Below are positions 3,619 to 41,053 of a DNA stretch of 47,389 bases, one piece after another. The translations under genes and the position numbers were made by a program. The notes beneath the pieces were generated by a model, which searched no databases, was not told the origin of the DNA, and saw only the letters and a program-made list of their open reading frames with translations. The DNA comes from Escherichia coli (lineage in GTDB: Bacteria; Pseudomonadota; Gammaproteobacteria; Enterobacterales; Enterobacteriaceae): assembly GCF_036507355.1 (NCBI RefSeq), contig NZ_AP027879.1. One strand, given 5' to 3'. Numbering within the stretch: position 1 is the first letter of the stretch; each line of letters starts with the position of its first letter.

Positions 3619-3882
3619 TCATTGCTGGCTTATCTCGCTACTGTTCTCGGTGCTTTCGTCCGCAGGTTCGGGAACAAGTAACTTGTGCCAAGGCATAGTT
3701 TTGTTGAGCAGCTCCATCAGAGGCTCAGCCAGCAGTCCCAAAATCCAGGTTGCCGTAATCACCGGTATAGTCAGATTTTGTGGCGTCCATAACTGGTGAT
3801 CGAGATGATACCAAGTGATGACACACAAAATACCACCCAGCCAGAATACAGCCCATTTAAACGCACCAAGAATGGCTAACAC
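3619..3882 (-). CDS. Small hydrophobic membrane protein; possibly the C-terminal part of a gene interrupted by an in-frame TGA
   Basis: 87-aa hydrophobic ORF with GTG start; an in-frame upstream ORF (ATG at 4065, MAKIYQFPQGEERAKF, 41 codons) ends at TGA 3942-3940. Confidence 0.45.
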   Translation of the reverse strand: MLAILGAFKWAVFWLGGILCVITWYHLDHQLWTPQNLTIPVITATWILGLLAEPLMELLNKTMPWHKLLVPEPADESTENSSEISQQ

Positions 3883-11976: not shown

Positions 11977-12688
11977 CTAGTATGACGTCTGTCGCACCTG
12001 CTTGATCGCGGCCGCGATAGCTAGATCGCGTTGCTCCTCTTCTCCATCCGCGTTCCAAGCTGCGGAAAGGCACCCATAAGCGTACGCCTGGTCGAGCAGG
12101 CGACGCGGATCGACGTCCAGCGCACGAGAGAATGCGTCCGCCATCTGTGCAATGCGTCTAGGATCGAGACAAAGGTCGTCTCTGTCAGCCGGATCGTAGA
12201 ACATATTGGCGGCGCCAAAGCCCACTTCACCGACCAGACCGACGGGATCTATCACCAGCCAGCCGCGACTGGAGAACATGATGTTTTCATGATGCAGATC
12301 GCCATGTAGCCCACGCAGTTCCGAGGCATTGCTCATCATTTGATCGGCTATAATCGCCGCGTGGACGTAGTCAGTTTGACAACCTGCGTTTTGATCATCG
12401 CGCGCCCGCTGAAACAAAGCTGCAAAGCGATCCCGGATCGGGAGAAGGGCAGAAGGCAGGGGTTCCTCAGATGCGGCATACAGCTTCGCCATTAGTTCCG
12501 CTGCAATTTCGGTCGCCTGGTAGTCGCCGTGCTCGGCAACGATGTGAGAGAGCATTCGCTCCCCGGCATATTCGAGCAACATCAGATTGTTCTCACGACC
12601 GAGCAACCGGACTGCTCCCCTCCCATTGCGCCATACCAGATAGTCGGCCCCGCGCAGTTCATCAGCAATGTCTTCTATAGGTTTCAAT
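11977..12688 (-). pseudogene. strB: aph(6)-Id (strB), 5'-truncated by IS26
   Basis: Matches the C-terminal 237 aa of the full StrB at 27526-28362; N-terminal codons derive from the IS26 end. Confidence 0.85.
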
Positions 12689-13508
12689 GGCACTGTTGCA
12701 AAGTTAGCGATGAGGCAGCCTTTTGTCTTATTCAAAGGCCTTACATTTCAAAAACTCTGCTTACCAGGCGCATTTCGCCCAGGGGATCACCATAATAAAA
12801 TGCTGAGGCCTGGCCTTTGCGTAGTGCACGCATCACCTCAATACCTTTGATGGTGGCGTAAGCCGTCTTCATGGATTTAAATCCCAGCGTGGCGTTGATT
12901 ATCCGTTTCAGTTTGCCATGATCGCATTCAATCACGTTGTTCCGGTACTTAATCTGTCGGTGTTCAACGTCAGACGGGCACCGGCCTTCGCGTTTGAGCA
13001 GAGCAAGCGCGCGACCATAGGCGGGCGCTTTATCCGTGTTGATGAATCGCGGGATCTGCCACTTCTTCACGTTGTTGAGGATTTTACCCAGAAACCGGTA
13101 TGCAGCTTTGCTGTTACGACGGGAGGAGAGATAAAAATCGACAGTGCGGCCCCGGCTGTCGACGGCCCGGTACAGATACGCCCAGCGGCCATTGACCTTC
13201 ACGTAGGTTTCATCCATGTGCCACGGGCAAAGATCGGAAGGGTTACGCCAGTACCAGCGCAGCCGTTTTTCCATTTCAGGCGCATAACGCTGAACCCAGC
13301 GGTAAATCGTGGAGTGATCGACATTCACTCCGCGTTCAGCCAGCATCTCCTGCAGCTCACGGTAACTGATGCCGTATTTGCAGTACCAGCGTACGGCCCA
13401 CAGAATGATGTCACGCTGAAAATGCCGGCCTTTGAATGGGTTCATGTGCAGCTCCATCAGCAAAAGGGGATGATAAGTTTATCACCACCGACTATTTGCA
13501 ACAGTGCC
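12689..13508 (-). mobile_element. IS26, complete, 820 bp (copy a)
   Basis: 14-bp terminal IRs GGCACTGTTGCAAA; Tnp26 ORF. Confidence 0.95.
12741..13445 (-). CDS. tnp26: IS26 transposase Tnp26, N at position 184
   Basis: [18 protein letters not shown]...; residue 184 is N ([10 protein letters not shown]). Confidence 0.95.
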   Translation of the reverse strand: MNPFKGRHFQRDIILWAVRWYCKYGISYRELQEMLAERGVNVDHSTIYRWVQRYAPEMEKRLRWYWRNPSDLCPWHMDETYVKVNGRWAYLYRAVDSRGRTVDFYLSSRRNSKAAYRFLGKILNNVKKWQIPRFINTDKAPAYGRALALLKREGRCPSDVEHRQIKYRNNVIECDHGKLKRIINATLGFKSMKTAYATIKGIEVMRALRKGQASAFYYGDPLGEMRLVSRVFEM

Positions 13509-14913: not shown

Positions 14914-15351
14914 ATGCTCTCGGTCGTATGGAAGCTGGACCGCCTCGGTCGTGATCTTCGTCATCTCATTAATACAGTGCACGACCTGACCGCGAGGGGG
15001 ACCGGTCTGAAAGTGCTGACCGGTCACGGGGCGACTATCGACACAACAACGGCCGCTGGCAAGCTTGTCTTCGGTATCTTTGCCGCACTGGCGGAGTTTG
15101 AGCGCGAACTGATTGCTGAAAGAACGACTGCAGGTCTGGCATCAGCAAGAGCCCGTGGGCGGAACGGCGGCCGACCTTATAAAATGACGCCAGTCAAACT
15201 GCGACTGGCAATGGCATCAATGGGACAATCAGAAACAAAGGTCAGTACGCTATGCCAGGAACTTGGGATAACCCGGCAAACTTTGTACAGGCATATTTCC
15301 CCTGTTGGTCAACTGCGGGCGGACGGGATCAAGCTGCTCAACCGTGGATAA
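14914..15351 (+). pseudogene. tnpR: Serine resolvase (tnpR-like), 5'-truncated
   Basis: Frame begins mid-domain at LDRLGRD and lacks the catalytic Ser region; C-terminal HTH retained. Confidence 0.6.
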
Positions 15352-15408
15352 TTTGAACGGACGGAAAAATCTGGGGTTCCGGCGTAGTACCCCTATCACC
15401 TCCACATT

Positions 15409-15422
15409 TTTGCAACAGTGCC
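15409..15422. repeat. Solo 14-bp IS26/IS6-family terminal repeat (TTTGCAACAGTGCC)
   Basis: Exact match to the IS26 IR with no adjoining IS26 sequence. Confidence 0.4.
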
Positions 15423-15669
15423 TTATAAATGGCAGCCTTATGTTTACTTGCCAAGATGGGCTACCATATGATGTTTTATACTGAGCAATATTAATATTAT
15501 CTTTAATGGAAAAATTAAGCCCACTAAGTGACCCACTGCTATATGGCTCTATTGTGAAGACGCCTGAGGGTAAAAATTTATACATGGTTGTCCCTATGTC
15601 TATTATTGCAAGGTTGACAATATTATTCGTTTTATAAATTTGAGCGTTTAAAATCACACATCAAAGCAA

Positions 15670-16326
15670 TTAGTCAGGATAAACAACAATACCCAGTGCT
15701 TCGAGAATCAGTTCTTGCTGCCAGGCTGCAATTTTGATACCTGATGTATCGACTTTGCGGGGATCTAAACCGTCGAGTTCGGCGTGGCATAAATTGGCAC
15801 CCTGTAGGCTAAATTGCCCCCAGACATCTTCGGAAAAAACACCTCGACTTAAGTCTGACTCTTTCAGTGATGCACCCGCTAGGTTCGTTCCTATCCAGCG
15901 ATTTTCAAACAACTCACATTTTTCTAAACAAACCCTCTCCATATTGGCATAGGAAAGATTACATCCAGAAATAAATGCTGAGCAAAAGTACATACGATTA
16001 CTCACTTGATGGGCAAAGTTTGTTCGGGAAAAGTTGGCACCTTTTAAATCACACGCACGGAACTCTATACCGTAGCAATTGGCATTACTGAAGTTTGCCA
16101 TCGCAAGTTGGCATTGTTGGAAACTTGCATCACGAAGATCTGCGACATCAAAGTGGCAGCCTTCGATATCACCCTGTTCAATGAACTTGCAGTTGACGAA
16201 TGTCGTATCACGCAAGTTAGCACGTCGAAAGTCGCTGCGAATGAATGTGCAAGCGGTGAAGGTGAGATCACTTAAGTCTTTATGTGAAAAGTTGTGGTGC
16301 CGATATGTATGATTGTAGGTTTCCAT
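15670..16326 (-). CDS. qnrS1: Pentapeptide-repeat quinolone-resistance protein QnrS1
   Basis: 218 aa starting METYNHTYRHHNFSHKDL; pentapeptide repeats throughout. Confidence 0.95.
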   Translation of the reverse strand: METYNHTYRHHNFSHKDLSDLTFTACTFIRSDFRRANLRDTTFVNCKFIEQGDIEGCHFDVADLRDASFQQCQLAMANFSNANCYGIEFRACDLKGANFSRTNFAHQVSNRMYFCSAFISGCNLSYANMERVCLEKCELFENRWIGTNLAGASLKESDLSRGVFSEDVWGQFSLQGANLCHAELDGLDPRKVDTSGIKIAAWQQELILEALGIVVYPD

Positions 16327-16693
16327 GAGTACTCCTTGTTGAAAGGAGGGCTAGACTACCATTATACATATGCCAAGACATTAAAATAAAAGCCTGTTAC
16401 ATCAACACATTACAACCCCTCAATTTACCTGTTTTAAGTGGTCAAATTGGCGCGTAGAGCGCCTATCGCTCTTGCATTGGCACGCGGCCCTGTTGAAAAA
16501 AGTTATTCGCTTTAGATAGGGTTAGGAGAGCCGTGCTTCGCCGGTAAAAAATCGGACTATCCGACGCAGGGCGGACTCATCGGCGGAGAAGCAAACTTTG
16601 ACTATATCTCCCTACACTTGGAAGAGGGCTAGACTGGCCCCATAGATCACCAGACACTTCGACTCTCTTAAAATAAGAGGTAGTCTTGGAACT

Positions 16694-19081: not shown

Positions 19082-19901
19082 GGCACTGTTGCAAATAGTC
19101 GGTGGTGATAAACTTATCATCCCCTTTTGCTGATGGAGCTGCACATGAACCCATTCAAAGGCCGGCATTTTCAGCGTGACATCATTCTGTGGGCCGTACG
19201 CTGGTACTGCAAATACGGCATCAGTTACCGTGAGCTGCAGGAGATGCTGGCTGAACGCGGAGTGAATGTCGATCACTCCACGATTTACCGCTGGGTTCAG
19301 CGTTATGCGCCTGAAATGGAAAAACGGCTGCGCTGGTACTGGCGTAACCCTTCCGATCTTTGCCCGTGGCACATGGATGAAACCTACGTGAAGGTCAATG
19401 GCCGCTGGGCGTATCTGTACCGGGCCGTCGACAGCCGGGGCCGCACTGTCGATTTTTATCTCTCCTCCCGTCGTAACAGCAAAGCTGCATACCGGTTTCT
19501 GGGTAAAATCCTCAACAACGTGAAGAAGTGGCAGATCCCGCGATTCATCAACACGGATAAAGCGCCCGCCTATGGTCGCGCGCTTGCTCTGCTCAAACGC
19601 GAAGGCCGGTGCCCGTCTGACGTTGAACACCGACAGATTAAGTACCGGAACAACGTGATTGAATGCGATCATGGCAAACTGAAACGGATAATCAACGCCA
19701 CGCTGGGATTTAAATCCATGAAGACGGCTTACGCCACCATCAAAGGTATTGAGGTGATGCGTGCACTACGCAAAGGCCAGGCCTCAGCATTTTATTATGG
19801 TGATCCCCTGGGCGAAATGCGCCTGGTAAGCAGAGTTTTTGAAATGTAAGGCCTTTGAATAAGACAAAAGGCTGCCTCATCGCTAACTTTGCAACAGTGC
19901 C
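19082..19901 (+). mobile_element. IS26, complete (copy b)
   Basis: 14-bp IRs, 820 bp. Confidence 0.95.
19145..19849 (+). CDS. tnp26: IS26 transposase Tnp26, N at position 184
   Basis: Identical protein to copy a. Confidence 0.95.
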   Translation: MNPFKGRHFQRDIILWAVRWYCKYGISYRELQEMLAERGVNVDHSTIYRWVQRYAPEMEKRLRWYWRNPSDLCPWHMDETYVKVNGRWAYLYRAVDSRGRTVDFYLSSRRNSKAAYRFLGKILNNVKKWQIPRFINTDKAPAYGRALALLKREGRCPSDVEHRQIKYRNNVIECDHGKLKRIINATLGFKSMKTAYATIKGIEVMRALRKGQASAFYYGDPLGEMRLVSRVFEM

Positions 19902-24193: not shown

Positions 24194-24447
24194 GGCACTG
24201 TTGCAAATAGTCGGTGGTGATAAACTTATCATCCCCTTTTGCTGATGGAGCTGCACATGAACCCATTCAAAGGCCGGCATTTTCAGCGTGACATCATTCT
24301 GTGGGCCGTACGCTGGTACTGCAAATACGGCATCAGTTACCGTGAGCTGCAGGAGATGCTGGCTGAACGCGGAGTGAATGTCGATCACTCCACGATTTAC
24401 CGCTGGGTTCAGCGTTATGCGCCTGAAATGGAAAAACGGCTGCGCTG
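24194..24447 (+). mobile_element. IS26 fragment (first about 254 bp including IRL and tnp 5' end)
   Basis: Identical to the IS26 left end; interrupted by inverted complete IS26 copy c. Confidence 0.8.
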
Positions 24448-24448
24448 G

Positions 24449-25268
24449 GGCACTGTTGCAAAGTTAGCGATGAGGCAGCCTTTTGTCTTATTCAAAGGCC
24501 TTACATTTCAAAAACTCTGCTTACCAGGCGCATTTCGCCCAGGGGATCACCATAATAAAATGCTGAGGCCTGGCCTTTGCGTAGTGCACGCATCACCTCA
24601 ATACCTTTGATGGTGGCGTAAGCCGTCTTCATGGATTTAAATCCCAGCGTGGCGTTGATTATCCGTTTCAGTTTGCCATGATCGCATTCAATCACGTTGT
24701 TCCGGTACTTAATCTGTCGGTGTTCAACGTCAGACGGGCACCGGCCTTCGCGTTTGAGCAGAGCAAGCGCGCGACCATAGGCGGGCGCTTTATCCGTGTT
24801 GATGAATCGTGGGATCTGCCACTTCTTCACGTTGTTGAGGATTTTACCCAGAAACCGGTATGCAGCTTTGCTGTTACGACGGGAGGAGAGATAAAAATCG
24901 ACAGTGCGGCCCCGGCTGTCGACGGCCCGGTACAGATACGCCCAGCGGCCATTGACCTTCACGTAGGTTTCATCCATGTGCCACGGGCAAAGATCGGAAG
25001 GGTTACGCCAGTACCAGCGCAGCCGTTTTTCCATTTCAGGCGCATAACGCTGAACCCAGCGGTAAATCGTGGAGTGATCGACATTCACTCCGCGTTCAGC
25101 CAGCATCTCCTGCAGCTCACGGTAACTGATGCCGTATTTGCAGTACCAGCGTACGGCCCACAGAATGATGTCACGCTGAAAATGCCGGCCTTTGAATGGG
25201 TTCATGTGCAGCTCCATCAGCAAAAGGGGATGATAAGTTTATCACCACCGACTATTTGCAACAGTGCC
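24449..25268 (-). mobile_element. IS26, complete (copy c)
   Basis: 14-bp IRs, 820 bp. Confidence 0.95.
24501..25205 (-). CDS. tnp26: IS26 transposase Tnp26, N at position 184
   Basis: Same protein as copies a and b. Confidence 0.95.
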
Positions 25269-37595: not shown

Positions 37596-38415
37596 GGCAC
37601 TGTTGCAAAGTTAGCGATGAGGCAGCCTTTTGTCTTATTCAAAGGCCTTACATTTCAAAAACTCTGCTTACCAGGCGCATTTCGCCCAGGGGATCACCAT
37701 AATAAAATGCTGAGGCCTGGCCTTTGCGTAGTGCACGCATCACCTCAATACCTTTGATGGTGGCGTAAGCCGTCTTCATGGATTTAAATCCCAGCGTGGC
37801 GCCGATTATCCGTTTCAGTTTGCCATGATCGCATTCAATCACGTTGTTCCGGTACTTAATCTGTCGGTGTTCAACGTCAGACGGGCACCGGCCTTCGCGT
37901 TTGAGCAGAGCAAGCGCGCGACCATAGGCGGGCGCTTTATCCGTGTTGATGAATCGCGGGATCTGCCACTTCTTCACGTTGTTGAGGATTTTACCCAGAA
38001 ACCGGTATGCAGCTTTGCTGTTACGACGGGAGGAGAGATAAAAATCGACAGTGCGGCCCCGGCTGTCGACGGCCCGGTACAGATACGCCCAGCGGCCATT
38101 GACCTTCACGTAGGTTTCATCCATGTGCCACGGGCAAAGATCGGAAGGGTTACGCCAGTACCAGCGCAGCCGTTTTTCCATTTCAGGCGCATAACGCTGA
38201 ACCCAGCGGTAAATCGTGGAGTGATCGACATTCACTCCGCGTTCAGCCAGCATCTCCTGCAGCTCACGGTAACTGATGCCGTATTTGCAGTACCAGCGTA
38301 CGGCCCACAGAATGATGTCACGCTGAAAATGCCGGCCTTTGAATGGGTTCATGTGCAGCTCCATCAGCAAAAGGGGATGATAAGTTTATCACCACCGACT
38401 ATTTGCAACAGTGCC
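37596..38415 (-). mobile_element. IS26, complete (copy d)
   Basis: 14-bp IRs, 820 bp. Confidence 0.95.
37648..38352 (-). CDS. tnp26: IS26 transposase Tnp26, G at position 184
   Basis: [10 protein letters not shown]. Confidence 0.95.
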   Translation of the reverse strand: MNPFKGRHFQRDIILWAVRWYCKYGISYRELQEMLAERGVNVDHSTIYRWVQRYAPEMEKRLRWYWRNPSDLCPWHMDETYVKVNGRWAYLYRAVDSRGRTVDFYLSSRRNSKAAYRFLGKILNNVKKWQIPRFINTDKAPAYGRALALLKREGRCPSDVEHRQIKYRNNVIECDHGKLKRIIGATLGFKSMKTAYATIKGIEVMRALRKGQASAFYYGDPLGEMRLVSRVFEM

Positions 38416-40233: not shown

Positions 40234-41053
40234 GGCACTGTTGCAAAGTTAGCGATGAGGCAGCCTTTTGTCTTATTCAAAGGCCTTACATTTCAAAAAC
40301 TCTGCTTACCAGGCGCATTTCGCCCAGGGGATCACCATAATAAAATGCTGAGGCCTGGCCTTTGCGTAGTGCACGCATCACCTCAATACCTTTGATGGTG
40401 GCGTAAGCCGTCTTCATGGATTTAAATCCCAGCGTGGCGCCGATTATCCGTTTCAGTTTGCCATGATCGCATTCAATCACGTTGTTCCGGTACTTAATCT
40501 GTCGGTGTTCAACGTCAGACGGGCACCGGCCTTCGCGTTTGAGCAGAGCAAGCGCGCGACCATAGGCGGGCGCTTTATCCGTGTTGATGAATCGCGGGAT
40601 CTGCCACTTCTTCACGTTGTTGAGGATTTTACCCAGAAACCGGTATGCAGCTTTGCTGTTACGACGGGAGGAGAGATAAAAATCGACAGTGCGGCCCCGG
40701 CTGTCGACGGCCCGGTACAGATACGCCCAGCGGCCATTGACCTTCACGTAGGTTTCATCCATGTGCCACGGGCAAAGATCGGAAGGGTTACGCCAGTACC
40801 AGCGCAGCCGTTTTTCCATTTCAGGCGCATAACGCTGAACCCAGCGGTAAATCGTGGAGTGATCGACATTCACTCCGCGTTCAGCCAGCATCTCCTGCAG
40901 CTCACGGTAACTGATGCCGTATTTGCAGTACCAGCGTACGGCCCACAGAATGATGTCACGCTGAAAATGCCGGCCTTTGAATGGGTTCATGTGCAGCTCC
41001 ATCAGCAAAAGGGGATGATAAGTTTATCACCACCGACTATTTGCAACAGTGCC
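40234..41053 (-). mobile_element. IS26, complete (copy e)
   Basis: 14-bp IRs, 820 bp. Confidence 0.95.
40286..40990 (-). CDS. tnp26: IS26 transposase Tnp26, G at position 184
   Basis: Same protein as copy d. Confidence 0.95.

Follow-up and report, generated by a model that had tools for sequence, protein, structure and literature searches.

The window analysed here, a 47,389-nucleotide stretch of the Escherichia coli contig NZ_AP027879.1, carries qnrS1 next to the remains of a Tn3-family transposon and among several copies of IS26. The locus contains the following features.

12689-13508, - strand: nearest complete IS26, a possible source of transposase, with its outer inverted repeat (IR) at 12689 inverted relative to that of the relic
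14922-15351, + strand: 3' part of tnpR, a Tn3-family resolvase gene (Pfam PF00239, E 6e-24)
15356-15393, - strand: 38-bp terminal IR of a resolvase-carrying Tn3-family transposon, truncating the relic; reads GGGGTACTACGCCGGAACCCCAGATTTTTCCGTCCGTT on the - strand
15394-15422, - strand: 29-bp relic of an IS6-family element related to IS26, representing its IRL (transposase-proximal) end; reads GGCACTGTTGCAAAAATGTGGAGGTGATA on the - strand
15409-15422, + strand: exact 14-bp IS26-type terminal IR, found by exact match
15423-15657, - strand: 5' fragment of a Vibrio amidase gene whose chromosomal position is downstream of qnrS; about 78 codons are present
15670-16326, - strand: qnrS1, an ORF annotated as QnrS1 in matching plasmids
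15423-16538, - strand: the whole Vibrio-derived block of 1,116 bp (amidase fragment, qnrS1 and 212 bp upstream), delimited by BLAST to chromosomal loci
16486-16499, + strand: IR-like sequence GGCCCTGTTGAAAA (12/14), rejected as a partner IS end
16539-16629, no strand given: 91 bp between the Vibrio block and an IS3-family (ISEcl2-like) element, whose homology starts at 16630
12689-13508, 19082-19901, 24449-25268, 37596-38415 and 40234-41053: complete IS26 copies

The 14-mer TTTGCAACAGTGCC occurs exactly at 15409-15422 on the + strand, with 15422 as its outermost base, and corresponds without a mismatch to the 14-bp terminal IR of the IS6/IS26 family (GGCACTGTTGCAAA). The window contains 12 exact copies, ten of which are the ends of the five complete IS26 elements; the copy at 24194-24207 forms the end of a 255-bp IS26 fragment that a further IS26 interrupts, and the twelfth is the solo site. 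A BLAST comparison of IS26 with the window found no IS26 sequence adjoining 15409-15422. A second, inverted IR about 820 bp away from the solo 14-mer is absent, the nearest IRs being those of the IS26 at 12689-13508. A neighbouring gene for a DDE transposase (Tnp26-like, DDE_Tnp_IS240) is absent as well: the insertion sequence (IS) is represented by 29 bp only, and a Tn3-family IR starts at the very next base. The other end of the IS and the flank that adjoined it, where the second copy of an 8-bp target-site duplication would lie, have been lost, and searches for both turned up nothing. By chance, an exact 14-mer would be expected about 3.5e-4 times when both strands of the 47 kb are counted, and with up to two mismatches allowed 18 matches were observed against a mean of 0.53 in shuffled sequences. 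The initial annotation had described an exact 14-mer without adjoining IS26, located between a truncated resolvase and the 3' end of qnrS1, and had considered it improbable by chance. Exact matching and BLAST bear out the first point, the positions of the resolvase ORF end (15351) and the qnrS1 stop (15670) agree with the second, and the expectation and the shuffles support the third.

Similarity to the IRL end of IS26 extends over 29 bp and not 14, with five mismatches in the subterminal 15 bp (24/29), so that the near-identical subterminal sequence by which IS26 or an isoform would be recognised is lacking. A metagenome collection was scanned for occurrences of CACATTTTTGCAACAGTGCC in which the next base is not the T of the qnrS1 contexts, which gave ten matches, six of them the end of an IS26-like element; a full-length copy of 814-820 bp is present in four of those six (L085, L088, L089 and L093). 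The relic is identical at all 29 positions to the IRL ends of the IS copies in contigs L085 and L089, and at 28 of 29 to the IS in L088, L093, Serratia L095, Erwinia L100 and Serratia L102. Plasmids of Serratia liquefaciens (NZ_CP033894), Erwinia amylovora (NZ_HG813238) and Serratia marcescens (NZ_OY970407) carry relatives at 28/29, for which the annotation gives no more than 'IS6 family transposase'. BLAST of the parent-type elements against the window returned a 29-bp alignment at 100% running from 15422 to 15394, and otherwise only the IS26 copies. The next IS base past the relic is A or T, and the window has C at 15393, the tip of the Tn3-family IR; the identity thus covers the whole retained length and stops at a breakpoint, as in a fragment of an L085/L089-type element.

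In nucleotide sequence the parent-type elements share 89-92% identity with IS26 and among themselves. A 234-aa transposase is encoded by the intact copies (L088, L089 and L093), L085 having a disrupted reading frame, and the L089 protein, the sole one scanned, contains a DDE_Tnp_IS240 domain. IS26 shares with the parent the 14-bp terminal IR, the size (819-820 bp), the layout and the 234-aa DDE_Tnp_IS240 transposase, but differs from the relic at five of the 15 subterminal positions, and the relic has neither a transposase gene nor a second end. By the usual ISfinder naming thresholds the parent would rank as a separate IS and not as an IS26 isoform. The flanks of the IS in L085 and L089 resemble Pantoea or other Enterobacterales. 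Because of the 29/29 match to the parent and these enterobacterial flanks, the relic is assigned to a distinct relative of IS26; judged by its sequence, it is the end of an unnamed IS6-family element of about 820 bp from environmental Enterobacterales, in line with the earlier suggestion that the 14-mer is the end of a related IS. Unlike the relic, the Serratia and Erwinia plasmid elements and those of L085 and L089 are complete, and they lie in unrelated contexts, none beside qnrS1 or Vibrio DNA. The relic encodes nothing, no promoter- or terminator-like consensus site involving it was found, and most likely it has no present function.

On the inner side, the relic is bounded by an IR with the characters of the Tn3 family, namely a length of about 38 bp, GGGG at the tip and correspondence to a cognate transposase family. 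Between 33 and 34 of its bases match, with one mismatch, the IRs located after the Tn3-family tnpA stops in a Morganella plasmid (L001) and an E. coli plasmid (L008), and the tnpA 5' remnant linked to tnpR, seen in pP378-IMP (L006), is 85% identical to the tnpA of L008. The identical IR and tnpR end are also joined to a hisI-like gene in an unrelated contig (P0023), in which the 29-mer is absent. Because the IR matches tnpA-linked IRs and recurs at the hisI-like junction, 15393 is a true tip of the transposon, at which the IS sequence is cut. The tnpR gene, which encodes 204 aa where complete (L006), is itself cut at 14921/14922 by an ISKpn19 end, as determined by comparing the end sequence with L002 and L005. 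Since the cognate 38-bp IR directly follows tnpR, qnrS1 lies outside the original Tn3-family transposon. The other side of the Tn3-family insertion, expected to consist of IS interior, TATCA and GGGGTACTACG..., was sought and not found; pKOX105 was of no help. The other end of the transposon is said to be carried by pIMP-HZ1.

On the outer side, the relic abuts DNA of Vibrio origin. Relatives of QnrS1 were scanned in one genome per species, and among the resulting 75 loci the closest source is Vibrio mytili CAIM 528 (L009), 93% identical over 16538 to 15483. The identity amounts to 636/657 nt in the gene, 187/212 upstream of it, and 176/199 with one 12-bp indel in the 3' flank (15483-15669). 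The V. mytili contig lacks the last 55 bp before the 14-mer, ending at about 15477, and because of this early end the position of the exact junction rests on the more distant V. parahaemolyticus contig L084 (80% in the flank), which shows the same qnrS-amidase synteny. The first 70 residues of the plasmid ORF downstream of qnrS1 represent the N-terminus of an amidase, and the matching Vibrio protein of L084 (P0019) belongs to the Pfam family Amidase (PF01425, E 6e-42). The similarity at the protein level ends eight codons early because of a 1-nt frameshift near 15447.

The nucleotide alignment with the L084 amidase extends as far as ...ATTTATAA at 15423, where it ends. On the Vibrio side of this boundary the final 26 bp (...CATAAACATAAGGCTGCCATTTATAA) are identical to L084 (26/26); past it the plasmid continues with GGCACTGTTGC and the L084 chromosome with CGCCTTGTGTG, only 8 of 30 positions being identical, and the L084 sequence consists of further amidase codons (CGCCTTGTG...). 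Homology to the source therefore ends exactly at the outer base of the IR, as in a joint made by transposition. On this homology, 15422/15423 is a clean transposition joint with captured Vibrio DNA.

The opposite boundary of the block is of a different kind. Upstream homology of the V. mytili, Photobacterium ganghwense (L013) and Enterovibrio (L010) loci ends at 16538 in all three, and these chromosomal loci keep aligning to each other beyond that point, so 16538 is the capture boundary of the plasmid. The adjoining 91 bp (16539-16629) were encountered essentially only in qnrS1 contexts, with no independent occurrences, and neither this segment nor the boundary 16538/16539 showed similarity to IS26-like elements.

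The 318-bp region between the resolvase ORF and qnrS1 recurs at 100% identity in about 1,860 of the 1,995 plasmids that match it, with Klebsiella, Escherichia, Salmonella and Enterobacter among the hosts, and longer queries gave the same picture of conservation. Where the relic is missing, the context was truncated later by IS26, at about 15573 and 15589; further IS26 truncations occur at about 15478 and 15487 (P0009 and P0011). A longer remnant of the IS, exceeding 29 bp, was sought beside the qnrS1 flank with a chimeric query composed of IS interior, relic and flank against 72,556 plasmids. No such context was found, the matches to the chimeric query being merely two-piece coincidences with nearby IS26. 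The module consisting of the Tn3-family IR, the relic, the amidase fragment, qnrS1 and its upstream segment appears ancestral to essentially all known qnrS1 contexts. The comparison of contexts proposed in the initial annotation accordingly places the 14-mer in a conserved and longer, 29-bp, end. The view that it might belong to the conserved qnrS1 flank and have no IS relation holds as regards conservation, but the IS relation is clear. The idea of a footprint of a lost IS6-family element stands as far as the family is concerned; the body of the element was not lost by a simple deletion, since a Tn3-family IR cuts the inner side.

We consider it very probable that the 14-mer is the tip of a dead 29-bp IS6-family relic, left by an IS that was joined to a V. 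mytili-like segment and was subsequently truncated by a Tn3-family transposon. The relic is identical to the ends of the L085 and L089 elements, both of its boundaries are defined, the adjoining DNA is of Vibrio origin and the arrangement is conserved. According to this reading, the IS would once have been joined by this end to the V. mytili-like segment, inside the amidase gene just downstream of qnrS. A plasmid-borne copy of the IS may have landed by transposition in the amidase gene of a V. mytili-like host and taken the neighbouring segment along. A Tn3-family transposon (tnpA-res-tnpR) would later have inserted in the IS 29 bp from its end, and the rest of the IS would then have been lost. 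Elements of the IS26 family fuse replicons and carry adjacent DNA as translocatable units. By analogy, the IS was probably also the element that mobilised qnrS1, by the route of an IS26-type cointegrate or translocatable unit, a proposal to which we attach less confidence than to the identity of the relic. Because the boundary 16538/16539 has no IS6-type end, the origin of the block from a two-IS composite or a translocatable unit cannot be demonstrated.

An alternative is that the IS was a later bystander, inserted into a longer Vibrio fragment already resident on a plasmid, and took no part in the capture; all DNA on its far side, the remainder of the amidase gene included, would then have disappeared together with the IS body. 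The lack of an IS6-type end at the other boundary of the Vibrio block is consistent with this, and the flank is a busy target for insertion, having received IS26, Tn21-type IRs, a MITESen1-like element and ISKpn19. Moreover, the parent IS was found in Enterobacterales and not in Vibrio, and the literature has favoured ISEcl2 or Tn3-like structures as the vehicle. However, amidase sequence beyond 15423 was seen neither in the approximately 1,995 matching plasmids nor in the 22 protein clusters from public assemblies. The enterobacterial distribution is also compatible with capture, which would need just such an IS arriving in Vibrio on a broad-host-range plasmid, and IS26-family elements are well established as agents by which resistance genes are captured from chromosomes. 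A bystander insertion is regarded as unlikely, although it deserves serious consideration.

An origin of the 29 bp from IS26 itself by mutation is very improbable. Their outermost 14 bp agree fully with IS26 and the window contains five copies of that element, but the remnant would have to have acquired five differences in 15 subterminal bases, where the L085/L089 element has none, and complete conservation in about 1,860 plasmids makes local hypermutation implausible.

A further reading takes the 14-mer and the sequence at 16486-16499 as the two ends of a non-autonomous cassette resembling a mobile insertion cassette (mic) or a MITE. It draws on the 12/14 match on the other side of qnrS1 and on the fact that qnrS2 is known in a mobile insertion cassette. 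Nevertheless, the two repeats face the wrong way, so that both IS bodies would fall outside the pair, and 16486-16499 is part of a conserved segment, GCGAATAACTTTTTTCAACAG.GCCGCG, which precedes qnrS in the chromosomes of Vibrio, Photobacterium and Enterovibrio and also precedes qnrS2. The same sequence was for this reason rejected as a second IS end of a two-IS composite, in which it and the 14-mer would be inward-facing ends: it is conserved chromosomal sequence, through which homology runs to 16538. The qnrS2 cassette of Aeromonas plasmids likewise carries a qnrS gene with the conserved upstream block, but its repeats of about 22 bp are of a different, unrelated family, its 3' flank is unrelated from 6 bp past the stop, and it has no IS6-type end. 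Short IRs bracketing the gene together with a target-site duplication, the mark of a mic, were not found around qnrS1, there being no bracketing pair, and directly oriented IS bounding the DNA, as in a pseudo-compound transposon or translocatable unit, were likewise absent. The cassette reading is accordingly given hardly any weight. The proposal that the 14-mer is chance or native Vibrio sequence, for which the sole point is its position within a conserved flank, can practically be dismissed, in view of the expectation of about 3.5e-4, the 29/29 match to a real IS end and the cessation of Vibrio homology at the outer base.

Variants of the region in public assemblies, with three independent deletions of Vibrio DNA next to the relic, were exposed through protein clusters of the read-through ORF and confirmed at the DNA level.

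15423-15434: 12-bp deletion, four contigs including an NCBI assembly (L110, L111)
15423-15436: 14-bp deletion, four contigs, with L105-L107 from three separate sequencing runs
15423-15493: 71-bp deletion, one contig (L104)

All three deletions are flush with the terminus of the relic, the 14-bp case with an ambiguity of 1 bp, and none of the three endpoints can be put down to microhomology. The 22 protein clusters showed no further internal deletion of the flank. The junction between the relic and the Tn3-family IR is identical in all three variants, and since it has been kept, the deletions post-date the reduction of the IS to 29 bp. Nested deletions flush with an IS end are a signature of IS-mediated adjacent deletion, and true IS26 has made such deletions in the same flank (P0009 and P0011). 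An IS26-type transposase acting in trans may still use the solo end, for example by pairing the outer IR of an IS26 with the IR of the relic; we propose this tentatively, as an idea with somewhat less than an even chance of being correct. A conjectural role of the IS26 at 12689-13508 together with the relic would be one such case. The relic end joined to unrelated DNA was not found by a pattern scan of the metagenome collection or by a protein search with the read-through ORF, nor was a true IS26 located exactly at the site of the relic, as an exchange would produce. A local deletion hotspot might instead account for the three variants and is an alternative to use of the relic by a transposase.

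In reviews, the mobilisation of qnrS1 has been attributed to Tn3-like structures or ISEcl2 and its progenitor called unknown (PMC3270319). A V. mytili homologue has been noted in passing, at 95% (PMC9774513), and TIME-bounded composites have been described (PMC13367494). The structure 'Tn6292' has been presented as a single Tn3-family unit comprising tnpA-res-tnpR-qnrS1-ISEcl2 fragment-IS26-orf198 (PMC5027574), and an IS26-bounded blaLAP-2-qnrS1 unit has also been described (PMC7319535). Both share the tnpR-qnrS1-ISEcl2 fragment module with the window, but in the available portions of these accounts qnrS1 is treated as cargo downstream of tnpR and the IS26-like stub is not mentioned. The study of pEBG1 (2014) reported four '14 bp IS26-associated inverted repeats' near qnrS1 and read them as marking a putative transposable element (PMC4207749); two of these four cannot be ends of one IS26. 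A comparable capture junction is that of IS26 with blaSHV from the Klebsiella chromosome, according to the citing source (Ford and Avison 2004, cited in PMC8532951). As here, an end of the IS26 family directly abuts a fragment of chromosome with a resistance gene, but junctions of the blaSHV type have an intact IS, usually on either side, in contrast to the 29-bp stub on one side of qnrS1. In the accessible literature no description of the relic, the parent IS or the amidase junction was found; IS relics at gene-capture junctions are nothing out of the ordinary as a class, and this one appears to be undescribed.

Among the quinolone-resistance genes carried on plasmids qnrS1 is one of the most widespread, and the relic is informative about its history. 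The captured block, 15423-16538, is now defined to the base, with an amidase gene as its chromosomal neighbour and a V. mytili-like genome as the closest source found. The end of the IS26 relative is the only one that forms a clean transposition joint with the captured DNA, which makes this element, known here from environmental and plant-associated Enterobacterales, a candidate vehicle. For annotation, it follows that qnrS1 should not be described as cargo of the Tn3-family transposon, since an IR separates tnpR from qnrS1. If the flush deletions were indeed made by a transposase, the solo IS26-type ends that abound on resistance plasmids would be active substrates and not scars, and this would change the interpretation of rearrangements in such regions.

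Directly after the truncated resolvase gene tnpR (14922-15351, plus strand) lies its cognate 38-bp Tn3-family inverted repeat (IR; 15356-15393, minus strand), which places qnrS1 (15670-16326, minus strand) outside the tnpR-carrying Tn3-family transposon. This position conflicts with the model in which 'Tn6292', published as a unit transposon with a proposed far IRR (PMC5027574), carries the gene as part of one element. The proposed far IRR (GGGGTCTGAGG...ACGTTAAG, at about 12383-12420 of pP378-IMP) is of a type unlike the repeat at 15356-15393. The Tn3-family IR and tnpR end is also present elsewhere as an insertion in a hisI-like gene (contig protein P0023).

The outer neighbour of this repeat is a relic, a 29-bp IS26-like IRL end (15394-15422, minus strand), beyond which Vibrio-derived sequence begins. 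In public assemblies, three independent deletions of 12 bp (loci L110-L111), 14 bp (L105-L107) and 71 bp (L104) affect the Vibrio flank at 15423-15493, and all three have the terminus of the relic as an exact endpoint. No microhomology accounting for the deletion endpoints was found at these loci, and the deletions look like IS-type adjacent deletions generated from the 29-bp solo end. A second exact 'solo' IR in the window belongs to a 255-bp IS26 fragment (24194-24448), of which it forms the IRL end; this fragment is 100% identical to IS26 and is interrupted by a complete IS26 at 24449-25268.

ISKpn19 ends lie at or close to the tip of the Tn3-family IR in four loci:

L002, about 4001, ISKpn19 end
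L097, about 2527, ISKpn19 end
L098, about 2527, ISKpn19 end
L108, about 4030, ISKpn19 end

The four sites, equivalent to window positions 15388-15394, are 0-6 bp from the tip; the ISKpn19 ends occur in both orientations, and each locus represents a distinct context on a plasmid or contig. This clustering is far above the expectation for random insertion, which suggests that ISKpn19 either prefers the IR tip or repeatedly makes deletions terminating there. Further Tn3-derived elements are inserted in or beside the same short flank (L108, 3763-4022; L109, about 1105; protein P0010). They include a 256-bp MITESen1-like element, with a TAGGG duplication across the junction of the relic and the Tn3-family IR, and Tn21-type IRs (TIME244-like), with one joint reading ...TTTATAA|GGGG and another located at about 15467.

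On the other side of qnrS1, 91 bp (16539-16629) separate the Vibrio-derived block from the ISEcl2-like IS and are all but confined to qnrS1 contexts. Many plasmids have an ISKpn19 insertion within this stretch, at 16576|16577, and 33 bp of it have moved with ISKpn19 into a Proteus plasmid (L005). The sequence GGGCTAGACT is present twice: once at 16348-16357, a short distance upstream of the ribosome-binding region of qnrS1, where V. mytili has GGGCAAGCCT, and once at 16626-16635, across the left-hand terminus of the ISEcl2-like element; this double occurrence is probably due to chance.

Upstream of qnrS, the block GCGAATAACTTTTTTCAACAG.GCCGCG (qnrS strand; window 16486-16515) is strongly conserved within divergent flanking sequence. 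Common to chromosomal Vibrio, Photobacterium and Enterovibrio qnrS loci and to qnrS2, it is a candidate for a site that regulates the expression of qnrS. Twelve of 14 positions in the block coincidentally match the IS26 IR.

The closest qnrS homologue is found on V. mytili contig NZ_JXOK01000026.1 (L009), which terminates inside the amidase gene (3856-3863, the contig start), 55 bp before the plasmid-junction position. The last eight bases diverge, and a repeat or IS may be located where the contig terminates. Genes of the qnrS2 type are present in several unrelated marine genera, namely in Catenovulum (L011), Vibrio sinensis (L012) and Thalassotalea (L045), one of them on a contig of 1,061 bp. 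In the alignment of qnrS loci, their upstream flanks match the Aeromonas qnrS2 cassette column-for-column. These occurrences are consistent with circulation of the qnrS2 cassette among marine bacteria.
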